From an uncultured virus (IMG/VR IMGVR_UViG_3300047160_023228) (lineage: Duplodnaviria > Heunggongvirae > Uroviricota > Caudoviricetes), in IMG/VR virus record IMGVR_UViG_3300047160_023228: a DNA stretch of 64,000 nt; one strand, given 5' to 3'. The first letter of the stretch is position 1; each line of letters opens with the position of its first letter. A model generated the notes under the pieces. It saw only the letters and a list, made by a program, of their open reading frames with translations. It had not been told where the DNA came from and did not search any database. Shown here one piece after another: positions 6,019 through 61,382 of this stretch. A program made the translations under genes and the position numbers.

Positions 6019-6118
6019 CCGCGTGCCGGTGGCTCTGCTTCCGGAGGGAGCGCCAAAGCTAGCCCAAGGTGGACCCTGAGCCTGGTCGAAGGGGAAACCT
6101 TGGACTACAGAAAACCAG

Positions 6119-6752
6119 AGTTACTGTATCCCGAAGTCACTACATTTGAGTCGGAGCGACCAGCAGGACCGGGGTCCCCGCAGAAAGGTCTTCGTCTGCG
6201 GGGTGTAGCGAGCGCCGACCTTGACCAAAACCCGACTCTGGTTTTGCTCTAGTGTCCTGAGTCTAAAGTTCGCACCAGAAAAACTGCCGTCATCCTGAGC
6301 GAAGTTTGGCCGTTTTACGGCCAAACGCAGTCGAAGGACCTGTATCTACTTCTGTGACGAATTAGGACTCACCACACTAGGTCTCATAAATCCGCTTTGA
6401 AAGGGCACGGCTTTAGCCGTGCCGCAAGACTCCCCTCAAGACCGTGGGCTTTAGTGTCTGCATGAGAACTGGACGAAAGGGCCAACTTGCTAACTCGCTA
6501 TGTCGCGAAGCGACGCTAACTTGCTGTTTTTGTCTTAAAACCGATTCCTTTCCTGTTCCCGGATGCCAACCCGCGAGTTCTCACGCAGACTCTTTAGCCC
6601 CTGAGGGATGTCTTTGGCGGATGGCACGGTATTTATGAGATGACTTCTAGGGTCCTGTCGCTGTGAGGGCGTTACTGTGCATTGATCTTTAAACAGCGTG
6701 TCATCCTGAGCGAAGTTGATCGCGAAGCGATCAACGCAGTCGAAGGATCTGC
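6119..6752. repeat. cluster of several REP-like elements
   Basis: gtcatcctgagcgaag...cgcagtcgaagga at ~6289 and ~6700; ggcacggctttagccgtgcc at ~6404; ccccgcaga..tctgcgggg at ~6176; element shared with 60937. Confidence 0.75.
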
Positions 6753-10104: not shown

Positions 10105-10162
10105 TGGCGGACGAGGCGGGAATCGAACCCACAACCCCCGGCTTAGAAGGCCGGTGCTCTAT
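10105..10162 (-). pseudogene. displaced 3' part of host tRNA-Arg(UCU) at the left attachment site
   Basis: Minus strand ATAGAGCACCGGC-CTTCTAA-GCCGG-GGGTT-GTGGG-TTCGATT-CCCGC-CTCGTCC-GCCA; no tRNA 5' end upstream. Confidence 0.9.
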
Positions 10163-10297
10163 GAAGTTTCAGCCGGTGCTCTGAACACTTGCTGATTTCT
10201 TTCGAGCTTGGAGCGTCTGGCAACGCTTCTGTGTGGTTGTGTTTCCCGAACCGGGGCTGCAACCCCGATTCGTGTCCTATAGTGAAACACTCCGCCT
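10163..10297 (-). ncRNA. putative structured RNA of the left phage arm (5' part of an att-spanning tRNA-like/antisense RNA)
   Basis: Hairpins GUGUUU/GGACAC, GAAUCGGGG/CCCCGGUUC, AGCGU/ACGCU; 5' AGGCGGAG complementary to CUCCGCCU-ACCA in the right arm; boxes antisense to 52771-52795. Confidence 0.5.
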
Positions 10298-10387
10298 CCG
10301 CGCGTATGTGACGGGGAGCACAAAGTAACGTGACGCGCGGATTACTAGAGTCCTACGAAAATTGCAAGCGGAATCACGCCCCAATTG

Positions 10388-10573
10388 TTACTCTTCTGGT
10401 TCCTTCCCGCGGGGTGTGCGGTGGCTCACCAACTTGGAGTCACAAGTATAGCGGATGCAATAACGGATTGCGTTGGTCAGATCAAAGCCCTCCTGTTCCG
10501 CTAACTTCTGTAAATCCTTATACATTGCTGGAGCCAGGCCCAGGTTGATCCGTTTGCGTGTCATTGTCGCCAT
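10388..10573 (-). CDS. ribbon-helix-helix (CopG/Arc-like) DNA-binding protein
   Basis: RKRINLGLAPAMYKDLQKLAEQEGFDLTNAIRYCIR: alternating beta-strand plus two helices; divergent from the integrase. Confidence 0.7.
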   Translation of the reverse strand: MATMTRKRINLGLAPAMYKDLQKLAEQEGFDLTNAIRYCIRYTCDSKLVSHRTPRGKEPEE

Positions 10574-10686: not shown

Positions 10687-11859
10687 ATGATGGCCGATTC
10701 GAAAACACAAACTAGGGCCACGGCTACGGGCGGAAAGCTTTCACACACGCCCGACCATCAGGATTGCCCTGCCTGTAAGGCGGCAGATTTGCTCTTGGTT
10801 CAGATTGATTCTGATTTTTCCCGGCGTCTGTTCAGGGAAGCCGCGGAACTCTGGATGACGATTCGCCGGCGCGATAACAGCTTGAAAGCCCGCACCCACG
10901 AAACCAACACACAGTACATCGAGGCCCTGGGCCGATTCTTTGGTAACATGCGCCTCAATGACATCTCCCCCGGCCACCTCAAGATGTACCAGGACGCGCG
11001 GGCGAACAATCTCCTGATCGTTGCCGAAAAGGAAACCCACCCGTGGAAGCGCGCGGCCGGGCATTCGATCATCAACCACGAAATCTCCACCCTGGCGCAG
11101 ATCCTGAAGCACTGTAAGCTGTGGGATCGGCTTCGCCCGCTCTACTTCCCGCTCACCACCCCGAAGTGGAGTCCGCGCGAAGAAAAGATTTTGAGCGAAG
11201 AGGATGAACAGGATTTGTTTGAGAAAGCGGCCAAACATCCCGAATGCGCGCTTGCCTATTGGGTTGCGTGCATCACCAACAACACTTCCGCGGCGGGGTG
11301 CGAGTTGCGCGGGCTTCGCCTGAAACACATTCATCTTCGGCCCGGCAATGATATCTCCGAAATCTACGTGCCCTCGGACGCGGTGAAGAACGATGCCCGG
11401 CCGCGCAAGATCGCGTTGAACCGCACCGCGAAGTGGGCTGTGGAGCAATGCTATGGGCGCGCCCTCAAGTTGGGATCGTGCCAGCCCGATCATTACCTGT
11501 TCCCGTTGCGCCTCAACCGGGAGAAAACCACGGACGGCGCCAAGCACCGGGACAAGTACGATCCGACGCGGCCGGCTTCGCGGTGGTTCATCCGTAAGAG
11601 TTGGGAGAAGCTTCGCAAGGTGACGGGCTTTACGGAATTAAACCCGCACGATCTGCGCCATCAATGCATCACCCGTCTCTTGGAAAACGGCGTGGAACCG
11701 GAGACGGTTCGCTCCATCGCCGGGCACGTCACCCAACAGATGATGGAGTATTACTCCCACCTTCGCCGGCGGGTGAAGTACGAAGCGGTGATGGCGATTG
11801 AACTGGATGAGCAGCGGCGCCGCAAGCAAGGCCCGCAAGCGGTGCGCCGGTACGCCTAA
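10687..11859 (+). CDS. tyrosine recombinase/integrase homolog with atypical box I
   Basis: HDLRH, SIAGH, MMEYY; box I reads TSAAGCEL (no Arg); next to att. Confidence 0.85.
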   Translation: MMADSKTQTRATATGGKLSHTPDHQDCPACKAADLLLVQIDSDFSRRLFREAAELWMTIRRRDNSLKARTHETNTQYIEALGRFFGNMRLNDISPGHLKMYQDARANNLLIVAEKETHPWKRAAGHSIINHEISTLAQILKHCKLWDRLRPLYFPLTTPKWSPREEKILSEEDEQDLFEKAAKHPECALAYWVACITNNTSAAGCELRGLRLKHIHLRPGNDISEIYVPSDAVKNDARPRKIALNRTAKWAVEQCYGRALKLGSCQPDHYLFPLRLNREKTTDGAKHRDKYDPTRPASRWFIRKSWEKLRKVTGFTELNPHDLRHQCITRLLENGVEPETVRSIAGHVTQQMMEYYSHLRRRVKYEAVMAIELDEQRRRKQGPQAVRRYA

Positions 11860-12352: not shown

Positions 12353-13486
12353 TTACCGATACCGGCGTTCGTAGAAGCCACGATCAAAGAACGGGAACCA
12401 CTCGGAAGCAAAGCGGGTGATGATGCCCCGCGTGTTTTGCTTGATGCGAATATCCCAGAAGCCCACGTGCGCGGCGATCTTCTTTTTGCGCATGAACAGG
12501 CTTTGATCTTCGGTTGTGCCGGCCTGAAGGCAATGCACTTCGCGCGGATAGCCGTACTCCGCCTTGTGGTAGTGCCCGATGATGAGCACCTGGGGCTTTT
12601 CCCCGCCCTGGTAGCTTTCCACGATCTTCTGGGCCGTGTAAGACGTGGCGTAGGCCGATCCACCGCCGGGATGGAGGACGCGCATCACCGATTCCCCGGC
12701 GCCGCATTTCAGCGCGACATCGGCCTCGCTGTACCCGAGGTACTCAAGATCACGCCGCCCGGCGCGCTCCGCCCGCATCTGAAGGTATTGGCCGGGAATG
12801 ATGCCCTCGCGTTGGGCATACCACCCTTCGTGATCGTCGCCATCGATGAACAGGGTCCGGATTCCCGCGCGGTGGGGGAAGTTATCAATGAAGTAATCGA
12901 ACTGGTTATCCATCCCCGGCGCGGTGACAAGCTCCGTCTTATTGAAGCGGGCTTCGCCGTCCACGTAGTTCCCGGCGTTGAGTGCGGTGGTGATCCCATT
13001 GCGTTCCGCGTAGTCGTACGCCGCATGGAGCACATCGAGGCGGGATTGCCGGTTGCACAGATGGTTGTCAGACGTGATCAGGAAGCGATGCGTCCATTCG
13101 GCGCGGGGATCGCCCTTGATCTCATGCCGGCCAGGCGCCAGGGCCGCGGTGGTAGTCATCTCGAATACCCCGCCGGGATATTCGGTAATCATCACCCCAC
13201 GCTCTTTCATTTCGGCCATCGTGCGCCGAAGAGTTGACACGTTCACGCCTAACTCTTGCGCGAGATCCTTTGCGGCCACCGCATCTCGGCGGAGGCAATC
13301 GCGGATTTTCTTTTCGATCTCTTCCGGGCCAACCACCGCCGGTTCGATCACGCCGCTATGGCGGTACTTGAGAACGGTGGTGTTGTGAAGGCCCAGGCGC
13401 TTGCCAATGGCCCGATCCGAAAGGCCGCGGCCGGAAAGCTCAACGATCTTGCGCTGCTTGCTTACAGGGACAGGCGGTGACGCCAT
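12353..13486 (-). CDS. calcineurin-like metallophosphoesterase with N-terminal HTH domains
   Basis: SDNH, AGNYVDG, GDDHE, H, GHYH motifs; two HTH-like segments; TAATG coupling to upstream gene. Confidence 0.8.
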   Translation of the reverse strand: MASPPVPVSKQRKIVELSGRGLSDRAIGKRLGLHNTTVLKYRHSGVIEPAVVGPEEIEKKIRDCLRRDAVAAKDLAQELGVNVSTLRRTMAEMKERGVMITEYPGGVFEMTTTAALAPGRHEIKGDPRAEWTHRFLITSDNHLCNRQSRLDVLHAAYDYAERNGITTALNAGNYVDGEARFNKTELVTAPGMDNQFDYFIDNFPHRAGIRTLFIDGDDHEGWYAQREGIIPGQYLQMRAERAGRRDLEYLGYSEADVALKCGAGESVMRVLHPGGGSAYATSYTAQKIVESYQGGEKPQVLIIGHYHKAEYGYPREVHCLQAGTTEDQSLFMRKKKIAAHVGFWDIRIKQNTRGIITRFASEWFPFFDRGFYERRYR

Positions 13487-13767
13487 TAGTGCCTCGCTAT
13501 CGCCAACAGGTGATACGCCACTTCGATCAGCCCCACCACCGCGGCCACCAGCCAACCCGCGCCGCCGGCGCGCTGTTTCAAGCTTTCCAACACGCCGATC
13601 CGTTCCTCGTGGCTTGCCACTTGCAGTTCGAGCCGCGGAATACGGCCCTGCGGGTTCTCTGATTTTTCGTCAGGTGTGCCGAACATCTTCGTGAGGATCA
13701 CGCGAAAATCCGCGCGAAGGCCGCGTACTTCGTCGGTGAGTTCATGGAAGTTATCGGTTGGCGCCAC
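13486..13767 (-). CDS. small coiled-coil protein with C-terminal TM (lysis region)
   Basis: GGAG RBS; heptad region, then AGWLVAAVVGLIEVAYHLL. Confidence 0.65.
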   Translation of the reverse strand: MAPTDNFHELTDEVRGLRADFRVILTKMFGTPDEKSENPQGRIPRLELQVASHEERIGVLESLKQRAGGAGWLVAAVVGLIEVAYHLLAIARH

Positions 13768-39716: not shown

Positions 39717-40904
39717 TCACTTCGCCAATCCGCGCAAAGAATCCACGTGCTCAGCCCACCGGGCAAGCATGTCCCGCCGTTGTTCGGCGTATTCAGCGCG
39801 GTTGTAGATGCCCTTCACACCCGGCGGCTTATGGTTCAAACACTTCTCAATCCACTTCTCTTCGAATCCCATCTCACTCAACCTTGTGGTTGCTGTACGT
39901 CGCAGATCATGCACAGTGAAATGGGGCAGCCGTACGGCCACCCGCGCAAGTTGTTTATTCAGTGTGCTTTTGGAGATGGATGCCCATGTTCCGCCTGGCG
40001 CCGGCAACACACAGCCTTGCGGCGCATCGCCCTTCATCAGCGAACGAAACAGCCGAACCGCGCGGGTGGATAGATAGACGATCTGGCCTTGCCCCATCTT
40101 GTCATGGGCCTCGGGGATCGCCCATTCGCCACGGCTGAAATCGATCTCCGTCCATTCGGCCAGGCGCAACGCGCTCTTTCGCACCAACGTCAAAAGAATC
40201 AGTTCCAACGCCGCTTTGTACCGGGCTTCGATGGGCGCCCGATCCAACGCGCGCAGAAACACGCCGATTTCGGCCTCGTTCAAAGCACGATCCCGTTTCA
40301 CGCGCTCCGCAATGTACTTGGGAGATATCTCACGGGCCGGGTTAGCTTCCATCACCCCGCACACAATCGCGTAATCGCACAGCCGCTTGAGGATGTCCCG
40401 GATTGCAAGGGCCGAAGATCGCTTGCCTTCGTCGCGCCGTTCGAAGACGATTTCCCGCACGTGATCGGTGTTGATCGAACTCATGGGAAGGTGGCCGATG
40501 CGCGGCAACACGTCGCGTTCAAGATAGCGGCGCACATCGTTCGGAGCCAATCTATCTTTGGCAACCACTTCGCGTAAGTAACGCTCCGCAAAGTCTTTAA
40601 GCGTAGCGCGTTTCAGCTTCCCCAACTTCGCCTGGCGCTTGAGATCGTCCGGAGAGATGCCCTTCTTGATCGATGCGGCAAGCTCATCTCTTTTCTTTCG
40701 GGCTTTTTCGAGCGTGACGGTGGGATATCGCCCCAGGTTGATCTTTCCCGGCTTGCCGTGCAGCCGATAGCGAAACCGCCAACTCTTCACGCCGCTTGGT
40801 TGGATTTCCATGCCCAAACCGCGGCCATCGGTGACGGTGTAACGCCGATCTTTGGGCGCGAGTTCGTCAATGTCCGCAACTTTCAGGGATTTTCTTGTTC
40901 CCAT
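39717..40904 (-). CDS. P4-family tyrosine integrase
   Basis: Arm-binding DGRGL…SGVKSW…LGRYP; R (LVRKS), HDLRR, CLNH, Y all present. Confidence 0.93.
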   Translation of the reverse strand: MGTRKSLKVADIDELAPKDRRYTVTDGRGLGMEIQPSGVKSWRFRYRLHGKPGKINLGRYPTVTLEKARKKRDELAASIKKGISPDDLKRQAKLGKLKRATLKDFAERYLREVVAKDRLAPNDVRRYLERDVLPRIGHLPMSSINTDHVREIVFERRDEGKRSSALAIRDILKRLCDYAIVCGVMEANPAREISPKYIAERVKRDRALNEAEIGVFLRALDRAPIEARYKAALELILLTLVRKSALRLAEWTEIDFSRGEWAIPEAHDKMGQGQIVYLSTRAVRLFRSLMKGDAPQGCVLPAPGGTWASISKSTLNKQLARVAVRLPHFTVHDLRRTATTRLSEMGFEEKWIEKCLNHKPPGVKGIYNRAEYAEQRRDMLARWAEHVDSLRGLAK

Positions 40905-41018
40905 GTACCCAAAGTGCGCACCCAACGCGAAAACGGGCAACTAATTCCCTTAGAAATCAAAGCTGGAATACTTAATGAGCTAGAAAATCCCCGATTCCCG
41001 CAAGTAAACTGAATCCGT

Positions 41019-41096
41019 GGCCCCGTAGCTCAGCCCGGATAGAGCATCTGCCTTCTAAGCAGAGGGTCGTTGGTTCGAGTCCAACCGGGGTCACCA
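41019..41096 (+). tRNA. tRNA-Arg(UCU), phage-borne, intact
   Basis: GGCCCCG/CGGGGTC acceptor, GCTC/GAGC D stem, TCTGC-CTTCTAA-GCAGA, GTTGG-TTCGAGT-CCAAC, ACCA. Confidence 0.95.
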
Positions 41097-41150: not shown

Positions 41151-42353
41151 TCAGGCTTCTTCGAGCGCGTTGACTAAGAGCGGTTGGATCGTGCCATCAC
41201 GGTTGATCCTGTCCAACATGGCATCGCCGGCGGCTTCAGTCCCATCCCATCCCCGCGGCCAGGTATTGGCCGCAATGAGTTCCCGGATGCGCGCCTCTTC
41301 CTCAGAGTTGATTAGATCGATTGTTGGCCTACTCAACCGCCGGGCGGCTTCGTTGATTTCAGCCTGAATGCCAAGCACTGTTTTGAGGCCGCACAACCGG
41401 GCTTCCATAGTCAAGGGTCCAACCCGCTGTGGATTCGCCGCCGGGGTTCCATCCTTTCGCAATTCGATCTCCGTCTTACGTAAGCGGTTCGCATGGTCAA
41501 ACGAAAGATCGTGGTACAGCGGTTTCAACCGGGTAAGCGGAGTGAGATACGACCATTGAGTATCACGAATCACGGCCTGTAACGCGGTGTCCCGACTAGC
41601 AAGCGGACAACCGATGCACCCGGTTCGCGCGTTCAATTCCTCGGCCTGGGCGCCGCCATAAGCAACAGCAATCGGAATGGTCGGGAAGCCGAGATCCGGA
41701 GCGTGAGCCGTGAGCCATGCCCAAACATGGCACACCCGCCAATGAAGCAAGGGAGCAAGTGTGTCCGCAACCGCTTCCGGCGTAGCTTCCTGAAACCATC
41801 CCTGACCACATTCGGCGCCGTCACGGCTGCAACTCAAGATGATCCGTGCATCCCGTTGCGCGGACTCGCCGATCCGAACGCCCGTGATCATCAGAAGTTT
41901 TTCGCCGGCCCGGGCGCGCAGAGTTTCCAATGCGTGAACCATCGGCTCAATCTTGATCTGGGCCGTACACCACCGAAACCTGTTTTTGGGCGGTGGAACG
42001 CCGCGGCCAAGCATGTAGACAAAGAACCGCTCATCGATCTCCGGAAGCACAACCCGCGTGTCTATGCCGCGTTCTCTCAACTCCGCCATTACCTTTGTGG
42101 CCGCCACTTGAAGCGGTGGTATCTCCATTCGCGTATCGGCATAGAGCACCGTCAGGCTTTCCGGCGATGGTATCTGTTCCGTTTCGATCAGGTGAGCCAC
42201 GATGGTCACGGTTGCGCTGGAATCCTTGCCGCCCGAATATGCAATAGCCCAATGCCGGTGTGTCTGTGCGTAAGTTAAAAGCGATTGCTTTGTGAGTTCA
42301 ATCGCTTCTTTCAGTGTGGTTCGGGCGCCCTCAAACAGAGTGGGAGCAATCAT
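41151..42353 (-). CDS. DndC-like PAPS reductase-family protein
   Basis: YSGGKDS, ADTRME, LGRGVPPP..RFRWCT..IKIEP, GVRIGES..R, RTGCIGC. Confidence 0.82.
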   Translation of the reverse strand: MIAPTLFEGARTTLKEAIELTKQSLLTYAQTHRHWAIAYSGGKDSSATVTIVAHLIETEQIPSPESLTVLYADTRMEIPPLQVAATKVMAELRERGIDTRVVLPEIDERFFVYMLGRGVPPPKNRFRWCTAQIKIEPMVHALETLRARAGEKLLMITGVRIGESAQRDARIILSCSRDGAECGQGWFQEATPEAVADTLAPLLHWRVCHVWAWLTAHAPDLGFPTIPIAVAYGGAQAEELNARTGCIGCPLASRDTALQAVIRDTQWSYLTPLTRLKPLYHDLSFDHANRLRKTEIELRKDGTPAANPQRVGPLTMEARLCGLKTVLGIQAEINEAARRLSRPTIDLINSEEEARIRELIAANTWPRGWDGTEAAGDAMLDRINRDGTIQPLLVNALEEA

Positions 42354-43966
42354 CCGATCACCGCCTCAACCAACGCTTTCGCGGTGTGAGTCGGAACGGC
42401 GTTGCCAATCTGTTTCACGATGTCATCCCGCTTGCCGGTGAAACGATAGTGATCCGGGAAGCCCTGGGCGCGGGCAAGCTCACGCGGCTGCAACATCCGA
42501 AAGCGGATATCGAGCCGGTAACGCTTCACTTCGGGCTGAATCAGGGCGAACCGTTCTTTAGTGGTGACAGTTGGAACAGGATCGGCGGCGCCGCTCAAGT
42601 TCTCTGTGCCGTAGTAACAGATCAGGAACGGTTCGCAGATCCCCACTCCAATCTTCGAAGTTGCGGTGGGCATCGGTTCATCAACAGACTGTGCGGCGCG
42701 CGGCGTCTCACCTTCGCCGTGGTTCACCGTGACCATGTACGGCTGAATCAGGGCGGTATGGTTCTCTGTGACCACGGTGGCCAGAGGATCACCGACGCTT
42801 CGCGGTTCGCGTCCTTTGCCTTCCGGGCCGCCAGCTTGCATAAGAAATGGTTCAACGAGGGATAGATCACAACTTGTAGCTGTCACCGTCCGAACGGGCT
42901 TATCGATGCTTTGTGGCTGATCATTCTTCCGCGGATGTGGGAGTAAGAACGGTTGCACGATCCCGGTGTTGGCCTTCGTTACCACCGTGGGAATCGGCTC
43001 ATCGATCCCGCGGTTCTTCCCGCTGTCCGATCCCTGCTGATCCCATTGCACGAGATACGGCTCAACCAACCCGTAGTGATTCCCGCCGGCGGTGACGGTG
43101 TGTAACGGCTCATCCACCGCCTGGGTGGTCCCGGTTCCGCGCATCACTACGAGAAACGGGCGAAGATTCTCCGCCACACACCGCCCGAGATCGATATCCA
43201 AACCGCAAAACCGCTTCAACCCTGCCTGAATCCGTGAGAGCGTCTTTTTCGCTAAAGGCCGCTTGCGATCAAAGATGCTTTGCGAATCCATCTTCCAATC
43301 GATGATTTCGCGGGCGGTGCGCCACGGTTGCCTCTGATCCGGGATTAGTTCATTGCGCAACCGCGTGTGTGTCGGCTTCGGCCAGTGAATCTGTTTGCCG
43401 CCGCGGCGGGCGATGATGAACAGGCGCCGCCGGGTGGTAGGATCGCCGTAATCCGCACACGTGAGAATGCGCCATTCCACGCGATAGCCCAAAGCTTTCA
43501 GGGATGAGACGAACTGCAGGAACAGTTCGCCGCGCTTGGATTTCAACGGGCGGCCGTTCGCTCCCAACGGCCCCCACGAAGTGAATTCCGGCACATTTTC
43601 GAGGATGATGTTATCGATGTACAGGGCTTCGGCGAACCGCAAAACGTGCCAGGCCGAAGAGCGCGATTGATCGGACATCGGCTTTCCGCCGCGCGCAACG
43701 GAATGATGAGTGCATTCCGGCGAGGCGCACATCACGTCCAACCGGCCGCCGGGAATCAGCTTTCGCGGGTCCACGTTATCGATTCCGGTACAAGCGTGTT
43801 GCGCGTAAGGATGGTTGATGCTGTGGGTATCGATTGCAACCTGCCAATGGTTCACGGCCACAAGACTGAGATCAGCCCCGATCTCGTTGGCCGCCATAAG
43901 TAAGCCCTGCGATGTTCCGCCTGCTCCGCAAAAAAGGTCTGCTGCCTTGATCTCTTTCTTTTTCAC
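42350..43966 (-). CDS. DNA (cytosine-5) methyltransferase with repeat-expanded variable region
   Basis: DLFCGAGG, SPECT, ENVPEF, R.R, QIGNAV; repeated S.D.P..TVT units. Confidence 0.92.
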   Translation of the reverse strand: MKKKEIKAADLFCGAGGTSQGLLMAANEIGADLSLVAVNHWQVAIDTHSINHPYAQHACTGIDNVDPRKLIPGGRLDVMCASPECTHHSVARGGKPMSDQSRSSAWHVLRFAEALYIDNIILENVPEFTSWGPLGANGRPLKSKRGELFLQFVSSLKALGYRVEWRILTCADYGDPTTRRRLFIIARRGGKQIHWPKPTHTRLRNELIPDQRQPWRTAREIIDWKMDSQSIFDRKRPLAKKTLSRIQAGLKRFCGLDIDLGRCVAENLRPFLVVMRGTGTTQAVDEPLHTVTAGGNHYGLVEPYLVQWDQQGSDSGKNRGIDEPIPTVVTKANTGIVQPFLLPHPRKNDQPQSIDKPVRTVTATSCDLSLVEPFLMQAGGPEGKGREPRSVGDPLATVVTENHTALIQPYMVTVNHGEGETPRAAQSVDEPMPTATSKIGVGICEPFLICYYGTENLSGAADPVPTVTTKERFALIQPEVKRYRLDIRFRMLQPRELARAQGFPDHYRFTGKRDDIVKQIGNAVPTHTAKALVEAVIG

Positions 43967-44913
43967 TTTCCGTCCTTCGGGAACATCTTCCATTGGCTGT
44001 TATCGAGAAACGATCCGGCGTCTTTCTTGCCCACCTTGTACACCGCCGCGGCACCGTCATTCCCATCAAGCTGGTAGGTGTACAACCCGAACTCCGGATC
44101 AGGGCGATCCCGGCCGGCAACGGCGTGAAACGTTCCGTCATACGAAACCAGGCTGTGCGCGCTGCAACGGTGGAACTCCTGATCCACGCGCATCTGACGC
44201 GCCGGGAACCATTCGCCCCATTGCTTGAAAAAGAACGGGACGCCGGCCACCTGGCATTCGACGCGTACATCGCGCGCCCAATCGGGATGCATCGGCCTGG
44301 CCGCCGATCCGCTCTCCCCGCCACATATCACCCAATCCACGTGCTCGAATGCGCGGCTCAACACCAGGTCAAGCGGTCCCAGGGCGGGTTCGTAGCTCAC
44401 GAAGAACATGGGAACCGAAGGATGCCGGGCGCGAAGCCGTGCCACGTGCGCCAGGCGTTCTTCCAACCGCGTCTGATCTTCGGCGGTGAATCCCGGCTTG
44501 ACGTTCGCGGGCCAGCTCCGCAACCACCGATCCGGCATGAACGCTTCGTAGTTGTGCGCGCGCTTGGTCAGGATCAGGAATTGGAGGTTGCTGCAAACAT
44601 CGGCCTCAAGGTAGAAACGTTGACGCTGATCCCGCGGGCCATCGTCATCAAGAAAATCGGCCAGGGACGCGACGAACACACGGCGCATCACGCCGGCTGC
44701 TTTGGACGCGCGGTCCCACTTGCGAAGCTGATTCCAGTTGGCAAGCGAAGTGATCTTGCGCGGCGCACCCGGCCCCCACCCGCCGCCGGTCCAGTTGTAG
44801 AGCTTGTTTTGGGTTTCGGCGTAGCAATTCTTACAGCCCGGCGAAACCTTGGTGCATCCGATCCACGGATTGAAGGTGTGATCCGTCCACTCGATTTTGG
44901 AATTCTCTCCCAT
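43963..44913 (-). CDS. Gp37/Gp68 (DUF5131) family protein
   Basis: SKIEWTDHTFNPWIGCTKVSPGCKNCYA, LTKR, WVICGGESG, FFKQWGEW. Confidence 0.92.
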   Translation of the reverse strand: MGENSKIEWTDHTFNPWIGCTKVSPGCKNCYAETQNKLYNWTGGGWGPGAPRKITSLANWNQLRKWDRASKAAGVMRRVFVASLADFLDDDGPRDQRQRFYLEADVCSNLQFLILTKRAHNYEAFMPDRWLRSWPANVKPGFTAEDQTRLEERLAHVARLRARHPSVPMFFVSYEPALGPLDLVLSRAFEHVDWVICGGESGSAARPMHPDWARDVRVECQVAGVPFFFKQWGEWFPARQMRVDQEFHRCSAHSLVSYDGTFHAVAGRDRPDPEFGLYTYQLDGNDGAAAVYKVGKKDAGSFLDNSQWKMFPKDGK

Positions 44914-48292: not shown

Positions 48293-49456
48293 TTACTTCT
48301 CCAGCCGCATCGGCATCACAACGTAGTCGAGATGATCCCCTTCGGCGGGATCGGCGGAGAACATCAGCGCGCTTTGGTTGGTATCCGGCAAGCAAATGCG
48401 GACATCGCCGGATAGGAGCTTGAACAGGTCCAACAGGTATTCGCCGTTGACGCCAACCGAGAACGGCTGTTTGGGTGTACCTTGGCAATCCACCGTCTCG
48501 CGGGCTTCGCCGCTCTGTGCGTCCGATCCTTCGAGGGTGATCTCTTTATCGAACGTGAGTTTGACGCTGCAGGAACGTTCATCGCTGAGCAATAGGCAAC
48601 GTTCCAGGCTTGAGCGGAGTTCGCCGGCCTTCGCCGTGATCACCGTATTGTTCTTCGGCACAACCGCTTCCCAATTGGGAAATGGCCCGGCAAGTTTCTT
48701 GTGCGCCACGTGAACCGGAGTCTCACCCGGCAACGCGGCGATGATCTGTTGATCGTCGAAGGTGACATCCACGCCGCCATCGGAGAGCATCGGCAACAGG
48801 GCCTTGACCATGCCGGCTGGGATCAGGAGGTTCTTGAGCTTGTCTTCACAGGAGATCGAATAGATCATCATCGTGTGCCCGTTGGTGGCCACGAACTTCA
48901 GGTGCGATCCATCTCCCACGGCCAGAATGCCGTTGAGCGTGTAGCGGCTGGCTTCCTTGCTCACGGCGATCTGTGCGAAGCGAAGCGCGCGGGCAACACC
49001 CTCCTGGTCAAGCGTGATGGCGCCGCCATTGGCTTCGAACGAAATCTGCGGCCATGAACCAACACCCATGATCGGAAGCACGGCGCGGGCACGGGCGCAT
49101 TGCAGCGTTGCCCGGCGATCCGTGAGGCTGAGCTTCACTTCATCGCCCGTGAGAAGCTTCGTCCAATCGAGCAGTTTTTCCGCGGGGATCACCACAGGCT
49201 TATCGATGGTGGTGGATTCGGGAACCGCGGCGCGGATGGCCAGGTCAAGGTTGGTGGCTTCGAGGATCAGGCCCGCCGGCGTCTGTTCCACCTTGACGCA
49301 GGTCAGAATCGGGATGGTGGTTTTGCGCTCGATGGCCGCCGAAACAGTCTTGAGCGCGTGTTTCAAATTGGAGAGAGATACGGTGGCCTTCGAGGGCGCG
49401 GATTCCGGCTTGTCAACCGTTGCGGCCTCGGGCTTGTCTGTTACCGCTGTTGCCAT
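48293..49456 (-). CDS. dnaN: DNA polymerase III beta sliding clamp homolog
   Basis: KTTIPILT, ATNLD, SRYTLNG, ATNGH, FPNW..V.P, YVVMPMR. Confidence 0.9.
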   Translation of the reverse strand: MATAVTDKPEAATVDKPESAPSKATVSLSNLKHALKTVSAAIERKTTIPILTCVKVEQTPAGLILEATNLDLAIRAAVPESTTIDKPVVIPAEKLLDWTKLLTGDEVKLSLTDRRATLQCARARAVLPIMGVGSWPQISFEANGGAITLDQEGVARALRFAQIAVSKEASRYTLNGILAVGDGSHLKFVATNGHTMMIYSISCEDKLKNLLIPAGMVKALLPMLSDGGVDVTFDDQQIIAALPGETPVHVAHKKLAGPFPNWEAVVPKNNTVITAKAGELRSSLERCLLLSDERSCSVKLTFDKEITLEGSDAQSGEARETVDCQGTPKQPFSVGVNGEYLLDLFKLLSGDVRICLPDTNQSALMFSADPAEGDHLDYVVMPMRLEK

Positions 49457-51456: not shown

Positions 51457-51721
51457 TGCGCTTTCCGTTGCCTTCGCGTTGCCGCATGAGTTCGGACACC
51501 AGGCCCGCGGTTTCGAGTTCAAGCCGGTGCATAATGTCCCGGATGGGCATCTGTGGATCGGCCGCAATCGCGGAATCGAACACGAAGCGGCCATCATCGT
51601 CAGGTGCTGCGCCGGCGCGAACAGCCACCACGAACAGGGCGCCCGAACCTTTCCTGATCCACTCGCACGCGCCCTCAAGCGAATGCCGGCTGGTGAGGTC
51701 CCATTTGCCGTTGTTGCTCAC
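51419..51721 (-). CDS. hypothetical protein
   Basis: GTGA coupling. Confidence 0.6.
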   Translation of the reverse strand: MSNNGKWDLTSRHSLEGACEWIRKGSGALFVVAVRAGAAPDDDGRFVFDSAIAADPQMPIRDIMHRLELETAGLVSELMRQREGNGKRNERVSASKSSQR

Positions 51722-52056
51722 GCCGCGGCCTCTTCTTTCCGGAGTTGCTTGATATCGAAGCCGTATTCGTGAAGCTTGCGGTAGAGGGTGGTTTTGCCGA
51801 TGCCCAGGAGCTTGGCGGCCAGGAGCGGGCCTTTGCGTTCGATGGCGTGCAGGATGGCTTTCTTTTCGAGAGCATCCAGGGGCACGATGCCGTCTTCGTA
51901 GTTGGTGGCATCGCCTTCGGCCTGAATGCGGGCCGGGACAAGTTCTGTCTTCAGCCGCGCGAGTTCCTGTTGCCGCTGCAGGATCAGGGCGCGCACCCGG
52001 ATCAGTTCGCTTTCGATCTGGTCAATGCGCTGGCACGCGCAACCGTGGGAACTCAT
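51718..52056 (-). CDS. Fis-like HTH protein with coiled coil
   Basis: LDALEKKAILHAI…AAKLLGIGKTTLYRKL. Confidence 0.82.
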   Translation of the reverse strand: MSSHGCACQRIDQIESELIRVRALILQRQQELARLKTELVPARIQAEGDATNYEDGIVPLDALEKKAILHAIERKGPLLAAKLLGIGKTTLYRKLHEYGFDIKQLRKEEAAA

Positions 52057-52382: not shown

Positions 52383-52756
52383 CCGCGCACCGCCTTGGTG
52401 AACGTTTCCAGACTCATGCCCTCGTGAAACGGATGAGCGTTTAATGCACTATTCAGTTGGGAGGCTTTGTGGAGAAGCTTGCGGGCATTGCCGCGGCGCA
52501 CGGTATCGGTGGCCTTGCGCCACTTGCCGATGAAGATACCGGCGTCGGCGTGCTCGAAATCAGCCTGGAAGAGATAAAGCCGGGTTGCTCCGCAATCGAG
52601 GCAGGTCTGGCGGTTGTTGAACGGAAGGCTGAGATGGGAATGCCGGCACGGAAAAAAGAAATCGGCCAGGCGCGTCAGCACCGTTTGGAGGGCAGATCTG
52701 TACCCCGTTCGGGTTACTTCTGCCGGTGCTCTAAGAGTGAGGGCGGGGCTTTGCAC
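52379..52756 (-). CDS. first early-operon gene, Zn-binding hypothetical protein
   Basis: AAGGAG RBS; CRH…CLDCG. Confidence 0.65.
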   Translation of the reverse strand: MQSPALTLRAPAEVTRTGYRSALQTVLTRLADFFFPCRHSHLSLPFNNRQTCLDCGATRLYLFQADFEHADAGIFIGKWRKATDTVRRGNARKLLHKASQLNSALNAHPFHEGMSLETFTKAVRG

Positions 52757-52796
52757 TTGACAATCTCCTTGAAAAATCAGAAGATTGCCAAACGCG

Positions 52797-52873
52797 TGGT
52801 AGGCGGAGCCGGTGTGAATCCGGCAACCCCCGGCTTAGAAGGCCGGTGCTCTATCCGATTGAGCTACTCGCCC
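52797..52873 (-). tRNA. chimeric tRNA-Arg(UCU): host 5' part plus non-canonical phage 3' end, probably impaired
   Basis: GGGCGAG-TA-GCTC…GAGC-A-CCGGC-CTTCTAA-GCCGG-GGGTT-GCCGG-ATTCACA-CCGGC-TCCGCCT-ACCA; T loop not TTCRA; acceptor has an A.C mismatch and two G.U. Confidence 0.7.
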
Positions 52874-60796: not shown

Positions 60797-60936
60797 CAGA
60801 CTGGGGCGGGGGGAGCTACTCCCCCTCTCCCCCGCACCATTAATGCGAATTTCCTCGTGCAGCGGCGCCGGGAGGGAGCGATCCCTCCCGCTTTTTTGTT
60901 CGTTCAGGTCCGGGATCTCGCTAAAGCAAAACCGCA

Positions 60937-61382
60937 GTTACTGTATCCCGAAGTCACTCCATTTGACTCGCCGCGACCAGCAGCGAACGCCGGCCTTGAC
61001 CAAAACCCGACACGACACACCTGTTCTGTTTCTGATCAAGGCAGTCCGCCAAAACATTTGCGCACAATTATCAACCGATTTGCCACAATGGAATCGGGGT
61101 ACTGGCGCGCTCTTTGCCTCTCAGGGAATCCGAACCAACAAGCCCCGCTCCATGGTTGCATGACTGAAGCTCGTTTTGAACCAATCCGGCGGCTTTAAGC
61201 TCGGTTTCGCGCCATTCAGGAGCCATTAAGACCGGCTTTAGAGCCATTCAGGAGCCATTCAAACTACAGCTATCTGCAAGAAAATAGAAGTGATATTTGT
61301 CAAATCGGCACCCCCCCCGGGGGAACCAGCAGGGAGCGCCGACCTTGACCAAAACCCGACAGGACACACCTGCTCTGGTTTC
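60937..61382. repeat. dispersed repeat copies and 11-mer tandem repeats
   Basis: ttactgtatcccgaagtcact…ccttgaccaaaacccgac shared with 6121; second partial copy ~61325; gccattcagga units ~61210-61260. Confidence 0.7.

Follow-up and report, generated by a model that had tools for sequence, protein, structure and literature searches.

The window, a stretch of 64,000 nucleotides from an uncultured tailed virus, contains a prophage of which the early operon is probably controlled by a translational lock-and-key, with the two halves parted by integration and rejoined by excision. This reading is based on sequence comparison and predicted RNA folds. An earlier note had proposed that joining the phage arms at attP completes a tRNA-like regulatory RNA; judged by the related phages, this RNA is not the conserved element, and a different attP-spanning helix is. 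The general idea of that note, an integration-dependent RNA switch with halves that meet only at attP, is retained, with another helix and another mechanism. In the prophage, the host tRNA promoter would read into the early operon and give a transcript without the key. The ribosome site would stay shut and the translationally coupled operon silent, which would insulate it from host tRNA read-through. On the excised circle, a promoter in the left arm would yield a leader bearing the key, which would capture strand A of the lock hairpin before strand A' is made, and the ribosome would load. Integration would take away both promoter and key.

The 42.7-kb prophage is bounded by two 31-bp repeats located in a minus-strand tRNA-Arg(UCU) gene (Table 1). 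The 7-nt crossover overlap is presumed to be the anticodon loop (10149–10143), a position deduced from relatives with shorter cores. The head, tail and terminase genes and the early genes are all on the minus strand; the integrase is on the plus strand. In named genome records, relatives of this integrase belong to Acidobacteria MAGs in 14 out of 14 cases, and the sequencing runs containing the DNA of the window are soil metagenomes. Contigs from four DNA runs stop at the shared tRNA core; one of them has the right arm beside the core, as expected of attP and attR alike.

Table 1. Positions of the features discussed in the text
Feature	Position	Strand	Remarks
Displaced host tRNA 3' half	10105..10131	-	Canonical T arm, acceptor strand and CCA; in-silico attB score 123.4
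Att core, integrase end (attL)	10132..10162	-	D-stem 3' strand, anticodon arm and variable loop of tRNA-Arg(UCU)
Extra half-site copy	10172..10182	.	22 bp from core half site; putative integrase site
Key (B), left-arm strand complementary to lock strand A	10213..10231	-	16 Watson-Crick and 2 G.U pairs
Leader 5'-end hairpin (5' end putative)	10248..10271	-	GNRA-capped in several close relatives (loops by eye)
Candidate -10 hexamer CACTAT	10279..10284	-	22 nt after box; putative start around 10272
Strand of the earlier note with extension	10290..10312	-	Pairs with 52808-52787 across CCA; candidate anti-key in upstream-starting transcripts
TGTG-N8-CACA palindrome, conserved	10307..10322	.	CRP-family-like box
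RHH-like small gene upstream of leader	10388..10564	-	Weak Pfam RHH_5 match, E 0.012
Tyrosine integrase marking the family	10687..11859	+	No arm-binding domain match
Intact phage-borne tRNA-Arg(UCU), isotype of the target	41019..41096	+	Rfam 67.8 bits; score 123.1
First early gene, 125 aa	52379..52756	-	Heads genes with overlapping stop/start codons (52382; 52056, Fis-family HTH; 51721)
Further half-site copy, inside first early gene	52722..52732	.	Reads RAPA in frame
Lock hairpin, A (52795-52777) and A' (52772-52753)	52753..52795	-	Buries SD AAGGAG (52770-52765) and GTG start (52756-52754); no U tract
Rebuilt tRNA-Arg(UCU) at attR	52797..52873	-	Host 5' part and degenerate phage 3' half 52823-52797
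Att core, early-gene end (attR)	52824..52854	-	Identical 31 bp

Relatives were gathered by scans with the integrase, with its alignment and with att patterns. Natural attP junctions were collected from L013, L049, L051, L114, L058, L138, L117, L168, L086, L091 and L064, and prophages with both ends from L067+L029, L088+L189, L060+L230, L090+L322 and L096+L321. L061 and L204 were joined through their record names and a common core variant, after the pairing of key and lock had already been seen by eye. As controls served 42 attL junctions, with 23 ids (attP loci and chance matches) kept out of the set, and L046, of which the left arm is as in the attL loci L106 and L130 and the right arm is of another type. 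L046, and also L110, are read as two tandem prophages at one tRNA, the left arm of one facing the right arm of the other, so that a key meets a lock it does not match. A search of 401 family genomes for attR with the hairpin returned none, the pattern being too strict and the genomes incomplete; in viral contigs the hairpin pattern gave one locus.

The lock hairpin and its key

The lock begins 1–2 nt past the CCA. Opening of the ribosome site is predicted to cost 17.6 kcal/mol in the attR transcript and 7.0 kcal/mol with the key joined. Mismatches in the lock are G.U rather than A.C (25:6 across 14 phages, p 4e-4), which marks it as a hairpin of the RNA made from this strand. In 25 right arms, where the hairpins were located by this very feature, the 3' strand of the lock bears the SD and the start codon, also before unrelated first genes. 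An open frame of at least 54 aa follows in all 25; besides that of the window, 15 are homologous to its protein and the rest are not. No Pfam or PHROG family matches the first early protein. The stop and start codons overlap at the first three gene junctions downstream of the lock, so a single lock could silence several genes. The third gene of the operon (51718–52056, minus strand), of the Fis-family HTH type, may encode an excision or directionality factor. As a general feature, a 5' toehold beyond the lock stem was considered and dropped, since only 7 of the 14 phages have it.

The key is located in the arm opposite the lock, 60–80 nt before the crossover, and is co-transcribed with strand A only at attP. 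The key-lock duplex is significant in all 14 cognate tRNA-Arg pairs (z -2.8 to -7.2, p at most 0.023 against 300 shuffles), with a mean energy of -26.7 kcal/mol for cognate and -15.6 kcal/mol for non-cognate combinations. The windows for this test were chosen after the pairings had been seen, and were then applied unchanged to held-out tRNA-Val phages, of which four out of four pairs pass (z -3.8 to -6.6; two are near-identical, making three independent). In the controls, 2 of the 42 attL junctions have p below 0.05 and the tandem junction of L046 gives z +0.5.

The opening cost drops in 14 of 14 pairs, from 13.1–18.5 kcal/mol in attR or trailer to 3.4–12.0 kcal/mol in attP. When leaders are swapped among 13 pairs (L091 was left out of this matrix), it is 6.6 kcal/mol with the cognate leader and 13.3 kcal/mol with a swapped one (permutation p 1e-5, the pairs being phylogenetically related). 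Leaders of close relatives cross-react, while swapped ones otherwise mostly fail. For 11 of the 13 pairs, shuffled leaders equal the real one in none of 40 trials; L051 is weak, with 3 of 40 as good. The 24 nt after the CCA have a median identity of 37.5% among phages, so key and lock co-change and the pairing does not reflect shared sequence. At 32 of 33 informative G.U positions the key gives the Watson-Crick partner, in an alignment that favours matches to the reverse complement of A. These comparisons of cognate and swapped pairs were used in place of column-wise covariation of the RNAalifold or R-scape type; when nine natural attP loci were aligned with MAFFT, the key strands failed to line up. 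In L091, a phage of opposite orientation, the pairing is retained on the anti-tRNA strand. In L080, an attP of opposite orientation kept outside the statistical tests, no clear key-lock pairing was seen by eye. Taken over the sequences compared, key and lock appear to be kept, with covariation, across integrases 37–71% identical to that of the window, two target tRNAs and both orientations.

The predicted folds of this phage favour the lock at full length and at equilibrium (-92.8 versus -89.0 kcal/mol, a gap of 3.8), while the key helix is at 0.94–1.0 as the sequence from A to the SD emerges. As the lock wins at equilibrium and the key prevails up to the synthesis of the start codon, the switch in this phage must be co-transcriptional. 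The key helix is at most 0.14 at full length in 4 of the 14 pairs, which would thus depend on kinetics.

The pairing could also be real and act mainly on transcription or processing, by relieving a pause or Rho loading or by shielding the RNA from the nuclease that removes the 3' trailer of pre-tRNA, instead of on ribosome access. We consider this unlikely. In its favour, untranslated RNA invites Rho, and the lock starts just where a pre-tRNA is cut; the Tn916 precedent moreover works on transcription, according to the accessible part of its description (PMC11658703). Against this, the lock does not behave as an intrinsic terminator: all 25 right arms lack a U tract, with 0–3 T in the 8 nt after the stem, a terminator scan finds none, and an SD with a start codon lies in the 3' strand even before unrelated genes.

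A second alternative is that B, A and A' are DNA repeats, such as RHH operators or sites for the integrase or an RDF, with incidental RNA folding. An RHH-like gene adjoins the leader, and inverted repeats fold on both strands; the strand asymmetry of the key-lock duplex is indeed weak, with G.U:A.C at 17:8 (p 0.054) and similar sense and antisense energies (p 0.17). The lock wobbles, in contrast, are strand-specific, the duplexes are bulged with variable spacing, and the sequences vary freely among phages with identical core half sites. In addition, the key fits the complement of A better than it fits A' in 17 of 17 pairs (L090+L322, a near-duplicate, was not used) and never contains GGAG, which argues against it being a third copy of a DNA operator. 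Incidental folding is therefore very improbable, and translational control by key and lock remains the preferred reading.

Leader promoter and the tRNA-like helix

The leader promoters were predicted with custom patterns, which assigned 36 of 48 arms; a plain sigma-70 scan of the window leader returned no promoter. Distant relatives have TTGACA-(16–18)-nAnnnT about 100–130 nt before the overlap, directed into att. Among close relatives, 10 of 11 dereplicated arms have the TGTG-N8-CACA box with nAnnnT 21–22 nt beyond it, and in the tRNA-Val phages this gap is 20–21 nt (by eye). We take the box to resemble CRP sites, and its distance to the hexamer presumably fits a class II CRP-type promoter, from which a start near 10272 would follow. 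Relatives of the RHH-like gene upstream are present in 79 loci, duplicates included.

The elements of the tRNA-like RNA described in the earlier note can all be found. The phage 3' half contains the 5-bp stem, the 7-nt loop, TCCGCCT and ACCA, and the complementary AGGCGGAG is present at 10297–10290. When the 193-nt in-silico attP is folded, a 7-bp helix forms at a pair probability of 0.89–1.0, with the eighth pair at only 0.09. The note had allowed that the 8-nt match could be chance; in this phage chance is unlikely, since shuffling the 226-nt arm 3000 times produced the exact 8-mer in 17 cases. The identity of the RNA as tRNA-like did not hold up, as ARAGORN makes no own-strand tRNA call on the attP RNA, even with a relaxed threshold or introns allowed. 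Nor is there a free ACCA in the unprocessed transcript: the helix runs through and past the CCA (10312–10290 with 52808–52787). Among the 14 cognate arm pairs the helix is significant in one, that of this phage, and three others have p 0.06–0.07. For the helix of 10290–10312, z is -5.7 here and -3.0, -2.0 and -1.6 in three relatives (box-bearing pairs). In one subgroup it may persist as a secondary helix.

P1 C4 and P4 CI, the analogues named in that note, are processed trans-acting immunity RNAs. On the circle, an RNA with its ends at 10297 and 52797, released by RNase P and by cleavage at the CCA, might regulate like them, a reading that we hold about as improbable as incidental folding of DNA repeats. 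The helix is strong in this phage, of which the acceptor strand departs from the canonical form at two positions, both preserving the pairing with its own left arm; the left arm of L044, the only arm available for it, pairs with the canonical form. RNase P can cleave hairpin substrates without a T loop, and as such a possible non-tRNA substrate the fold resembles C4 and CI in this one respect, as far as the accessible part of the source goes (PMC5499578). Opposed to this are the single significant pair, the covered CCA and the ordinary tRNA repair in relatives. If the promoter prediction is right, the 5' strand of the helix furthermore lies in the promoter spacer, upstream of the start. Phages with the TTGACA promoter lack the helix and retain key and lock. 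There is thus no conserved terminal helix, and Rfam gave no match to C4 or CI in the sequences scanned: the window, with tRNA matches only, and four natural attP loci (E at most 1), with tRNA and one chance miRNA match.

In a scan of leader 5' ends, the start codon is predicted to cost 1.4–1.9 kcal/mol to open only for ends from 10231 to 10272, compared with 12.5–14.7 kcal/mol without the key and 10.3–14.5 kcal/mol when the strand of 10290–10312 is included. In one subgroup its helix may act as an anti-key in read-through transcripts. More tentatively, longer transcripts carrying this strand would fold back over the 3' end of the tRNA and block the key, and the subgroup promoter would be activated via the CRP-family box. 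The predicted folds are mixed: the anti-key is unformed for a start 100 nt upstream and weak in L049, yet the site is harder to open for six out of six longer ends.

It is conceivable, if doubtful, that the attP junction itself is the lysis-lysogeny switch of these Acidobacteria phages, with no need for a CI-type repressor. In the subgroup, a CRP-family activator of the host would then pick the start between anti-key and key, the long transcripts being tRNA-like and perhaps cut as such, and early translation would come only from a circle within a host in the right metabolic state. Among the ORFs chosen (52 against PHROGs, 30 and 30 against Pfam) there was no CI-like family. Near the integrase end, a 400-aa protein (12353–13555, minus strand) has N-terminal HTH domains, with a weak match to a 'repressor' HTH, and a weak metallophosphoesterase match.

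The rebuilt tRNA and the integrase sites

Integration displaces the 3' half of the host tRNA, and the half supplied by the phage is degenerate: its T loop lacks the TTC register and an A6.C67 mismatch is present. The resulting attR tRNA scores 107.8, the lowest of 13, where the 3' halves of 12 relatives placed on the 5' half of this host score 115.2–126.5 and the intact gene 123.4. The claim that the RNA is complete only on the circle was overstated, as attR is still called tRNA-Arg by ARAGORN and by Rfam (50.4 bits), in degraded form. The 3' halves contributed by the phages in 15 of 16 relatives (L019 is degenerate) combine a canonical TTC(A/G)A T loop with an acceptor strand that fits the host 5' half, and by their sequences these halves are ordinary tRNA repair. 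The window phage, judged likewise, restores the host tRNA poorly, and has an intact tRNA-Arg(UCU) of its own. This second tRNA-Arg gene was absent from the earlier note, as were the SD-hiding hairpin just past the CCA and the half-site copy at 52732–52722.

The intact tRNA-Arg is head-to-head with a second integrase, which has an arm-binding domain (P4-like), between the early genes and the terminase (39717–41096). In L218–L220 (72% identity) there is no tRNA next to the second integrase; one of these (G407) has both integrase types and rebuilds tRNA-Val well. Relatives of opposite orientation at the tRNA-Arg anticodon loop (L068, L092, L095, L112, L137, L140, L147 and L157, in which the core and the start of the integrase are at most about 500 nt apart) mostly supply no 3' half to the host 5' half and are candidates for tRNA-dependent lysogeny. 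In this connection, an intact tRNA was not found in G408 and G409, both incomplete.

The duplication of AGAGCACCGGC at 10182–10172, which had been assigned to the RNA, is present, and behaves as a DNA site. In 47 arms the copy is best matched at an offset of exactly 22 bp relative to the core half site, with 5.15 of 7 matches versus 1.1–2.9 at other offsets. When the phage orientation flips, the copies follow the integrase arm (5 loci flagged, more by eye), and further copies lie about 100 bp inside the other arm. Because of the fixed offset and the tracking of the integrase arm, the duplicated 11-mer was rejected as an RNA element, and its copies are read as extra core-type sites for an integrase without an arm-binding domain match. 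The left arms of L143, L155, L141, L149, L096 and L100 have three or four half-site copies each, at longer distances. This pattern suggests that attP consists of core-type sites in arrays. At the N-terminus of the integrase (10687–10780), the motif H-x3-H-x2-C-P-x-C is nearly invariant in 109 aligned relatives and is possibly a zinc finger replacing the arm-binding domain.

Relation to known systems and further features

Many prophages lie behind host tRNA promoters, and repressors and terminators are usually credited with their silence there; in this family, a base-paired lock with a key delivered by excision appears to be used. Lambda sib is a negative element, located entirely to one side of att, that acts on the int mRNA via nucleolytic decay. 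The likeness is that of an RNA element across att, active in one integration state only, in the accessible part of the source (PMC6379469). Here, the activating helix would come from both arms and govern the early operon. The hairpin of IS10 and IS3 is bypassed by transcription that starts inside it. It also resembles the lock, as it hides the ribosome site in read-through transcripts from outside promoters, according to the portion of the text available (PMC13181058). The phage hairpin, unlike it, would be opened by a distant strand that recombination delivers.

Tn916 is the closest system. Terminator T1 insulates one of its ends, and the promoter and cis-acting canT at the other overcome T1 only after excision; canT is processive, acts on heterologous terminators and is suspected to target RNA polymerase (PMC11658703, accessible part). 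As in the phage, where the promoter is putative, a promoter and a relieving RNA are split by att from their genes. The Tn916 insulator is an intrinsic terminator, while in the phage a hairpin that hides the SD and lacks a U tract would take this role. In contrast to processive canT, the key is a strand of about 20 nt pairing only with its own lock, and swapped leaders mostly fail in silico. A further difference is that we deal with a tailed prophage, in which the junction passes through a tRNA half (all comparisons with the same partial text, PMC11658703). The earlier statement that no att-split RNA regulator was known is incorrect, given the precedents of Tn916 canT/T1 (PMC11658703) and lambda sib (PMC6379469), within the accessible parts of both sources. 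No base-paired att-split translational switch was found in the literature searched, which lay mostly outside subscription journals, older papers and supplements (the supplementary figures on relatives of Tn916 could hold cases). With att-split RNA regulation already known from Tn916, the reading that we hold likely, a base-paired translational lock-and-key assembled by excision and predicted from sequence and folding, would be a new form of it.

In the mycobacteriophages BPs, Brujita and Charlie integration itself also serves as a switch; theirs is small and has no lambda-type circuit. In the BPs type, attP lies within the repressor ORF and a degradation tag is removed, whereas here the RHH ORF ends (10388) about 225 bp before the core (10162) and the switch would be of RNA; both statements on these phages follow the accessible part of their description (PMC3694055). 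Phages with tRNA-dependent lysogeny also target a tRNA gene and carry an intact tRNA of the same isotype. Their core, however, is 8–17 bp, short cores being about 10 bp, and the window phage has 31 bp and still supplies a degenerate 3' half (PMC10865867, text seen in part). From its sequence, the window phage is an intermediate state relative to tRNA-dependent lysogeny.

The arrangement offers a directly testable coupling of gene expression to the state of the DNA within about 250 nt, and a natural collection of largely orthogonal lock-key pairs. The screen, in which joined arms are folded, is applicable to any prophage.

Elsewhere in the window, a superinfection immunity protein (PF14373; 24551–25069, plus strand) is encoded opposite to the tail-gene strand, beside a 237-aa plus-strand ORF. 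The regions 41151–44913 and 48293–49456 (minus strand) contain a PAPS-reductase-like gene, a DNA methyltransferase and a DUF5131 gene consecutively, and the phage encodes its own sliding clamp. Outside the prophage, host intergenic repeats of 30–56 nt, in two or three copies, are located at 6111–6236, 60928–61031 and 61325–61380.
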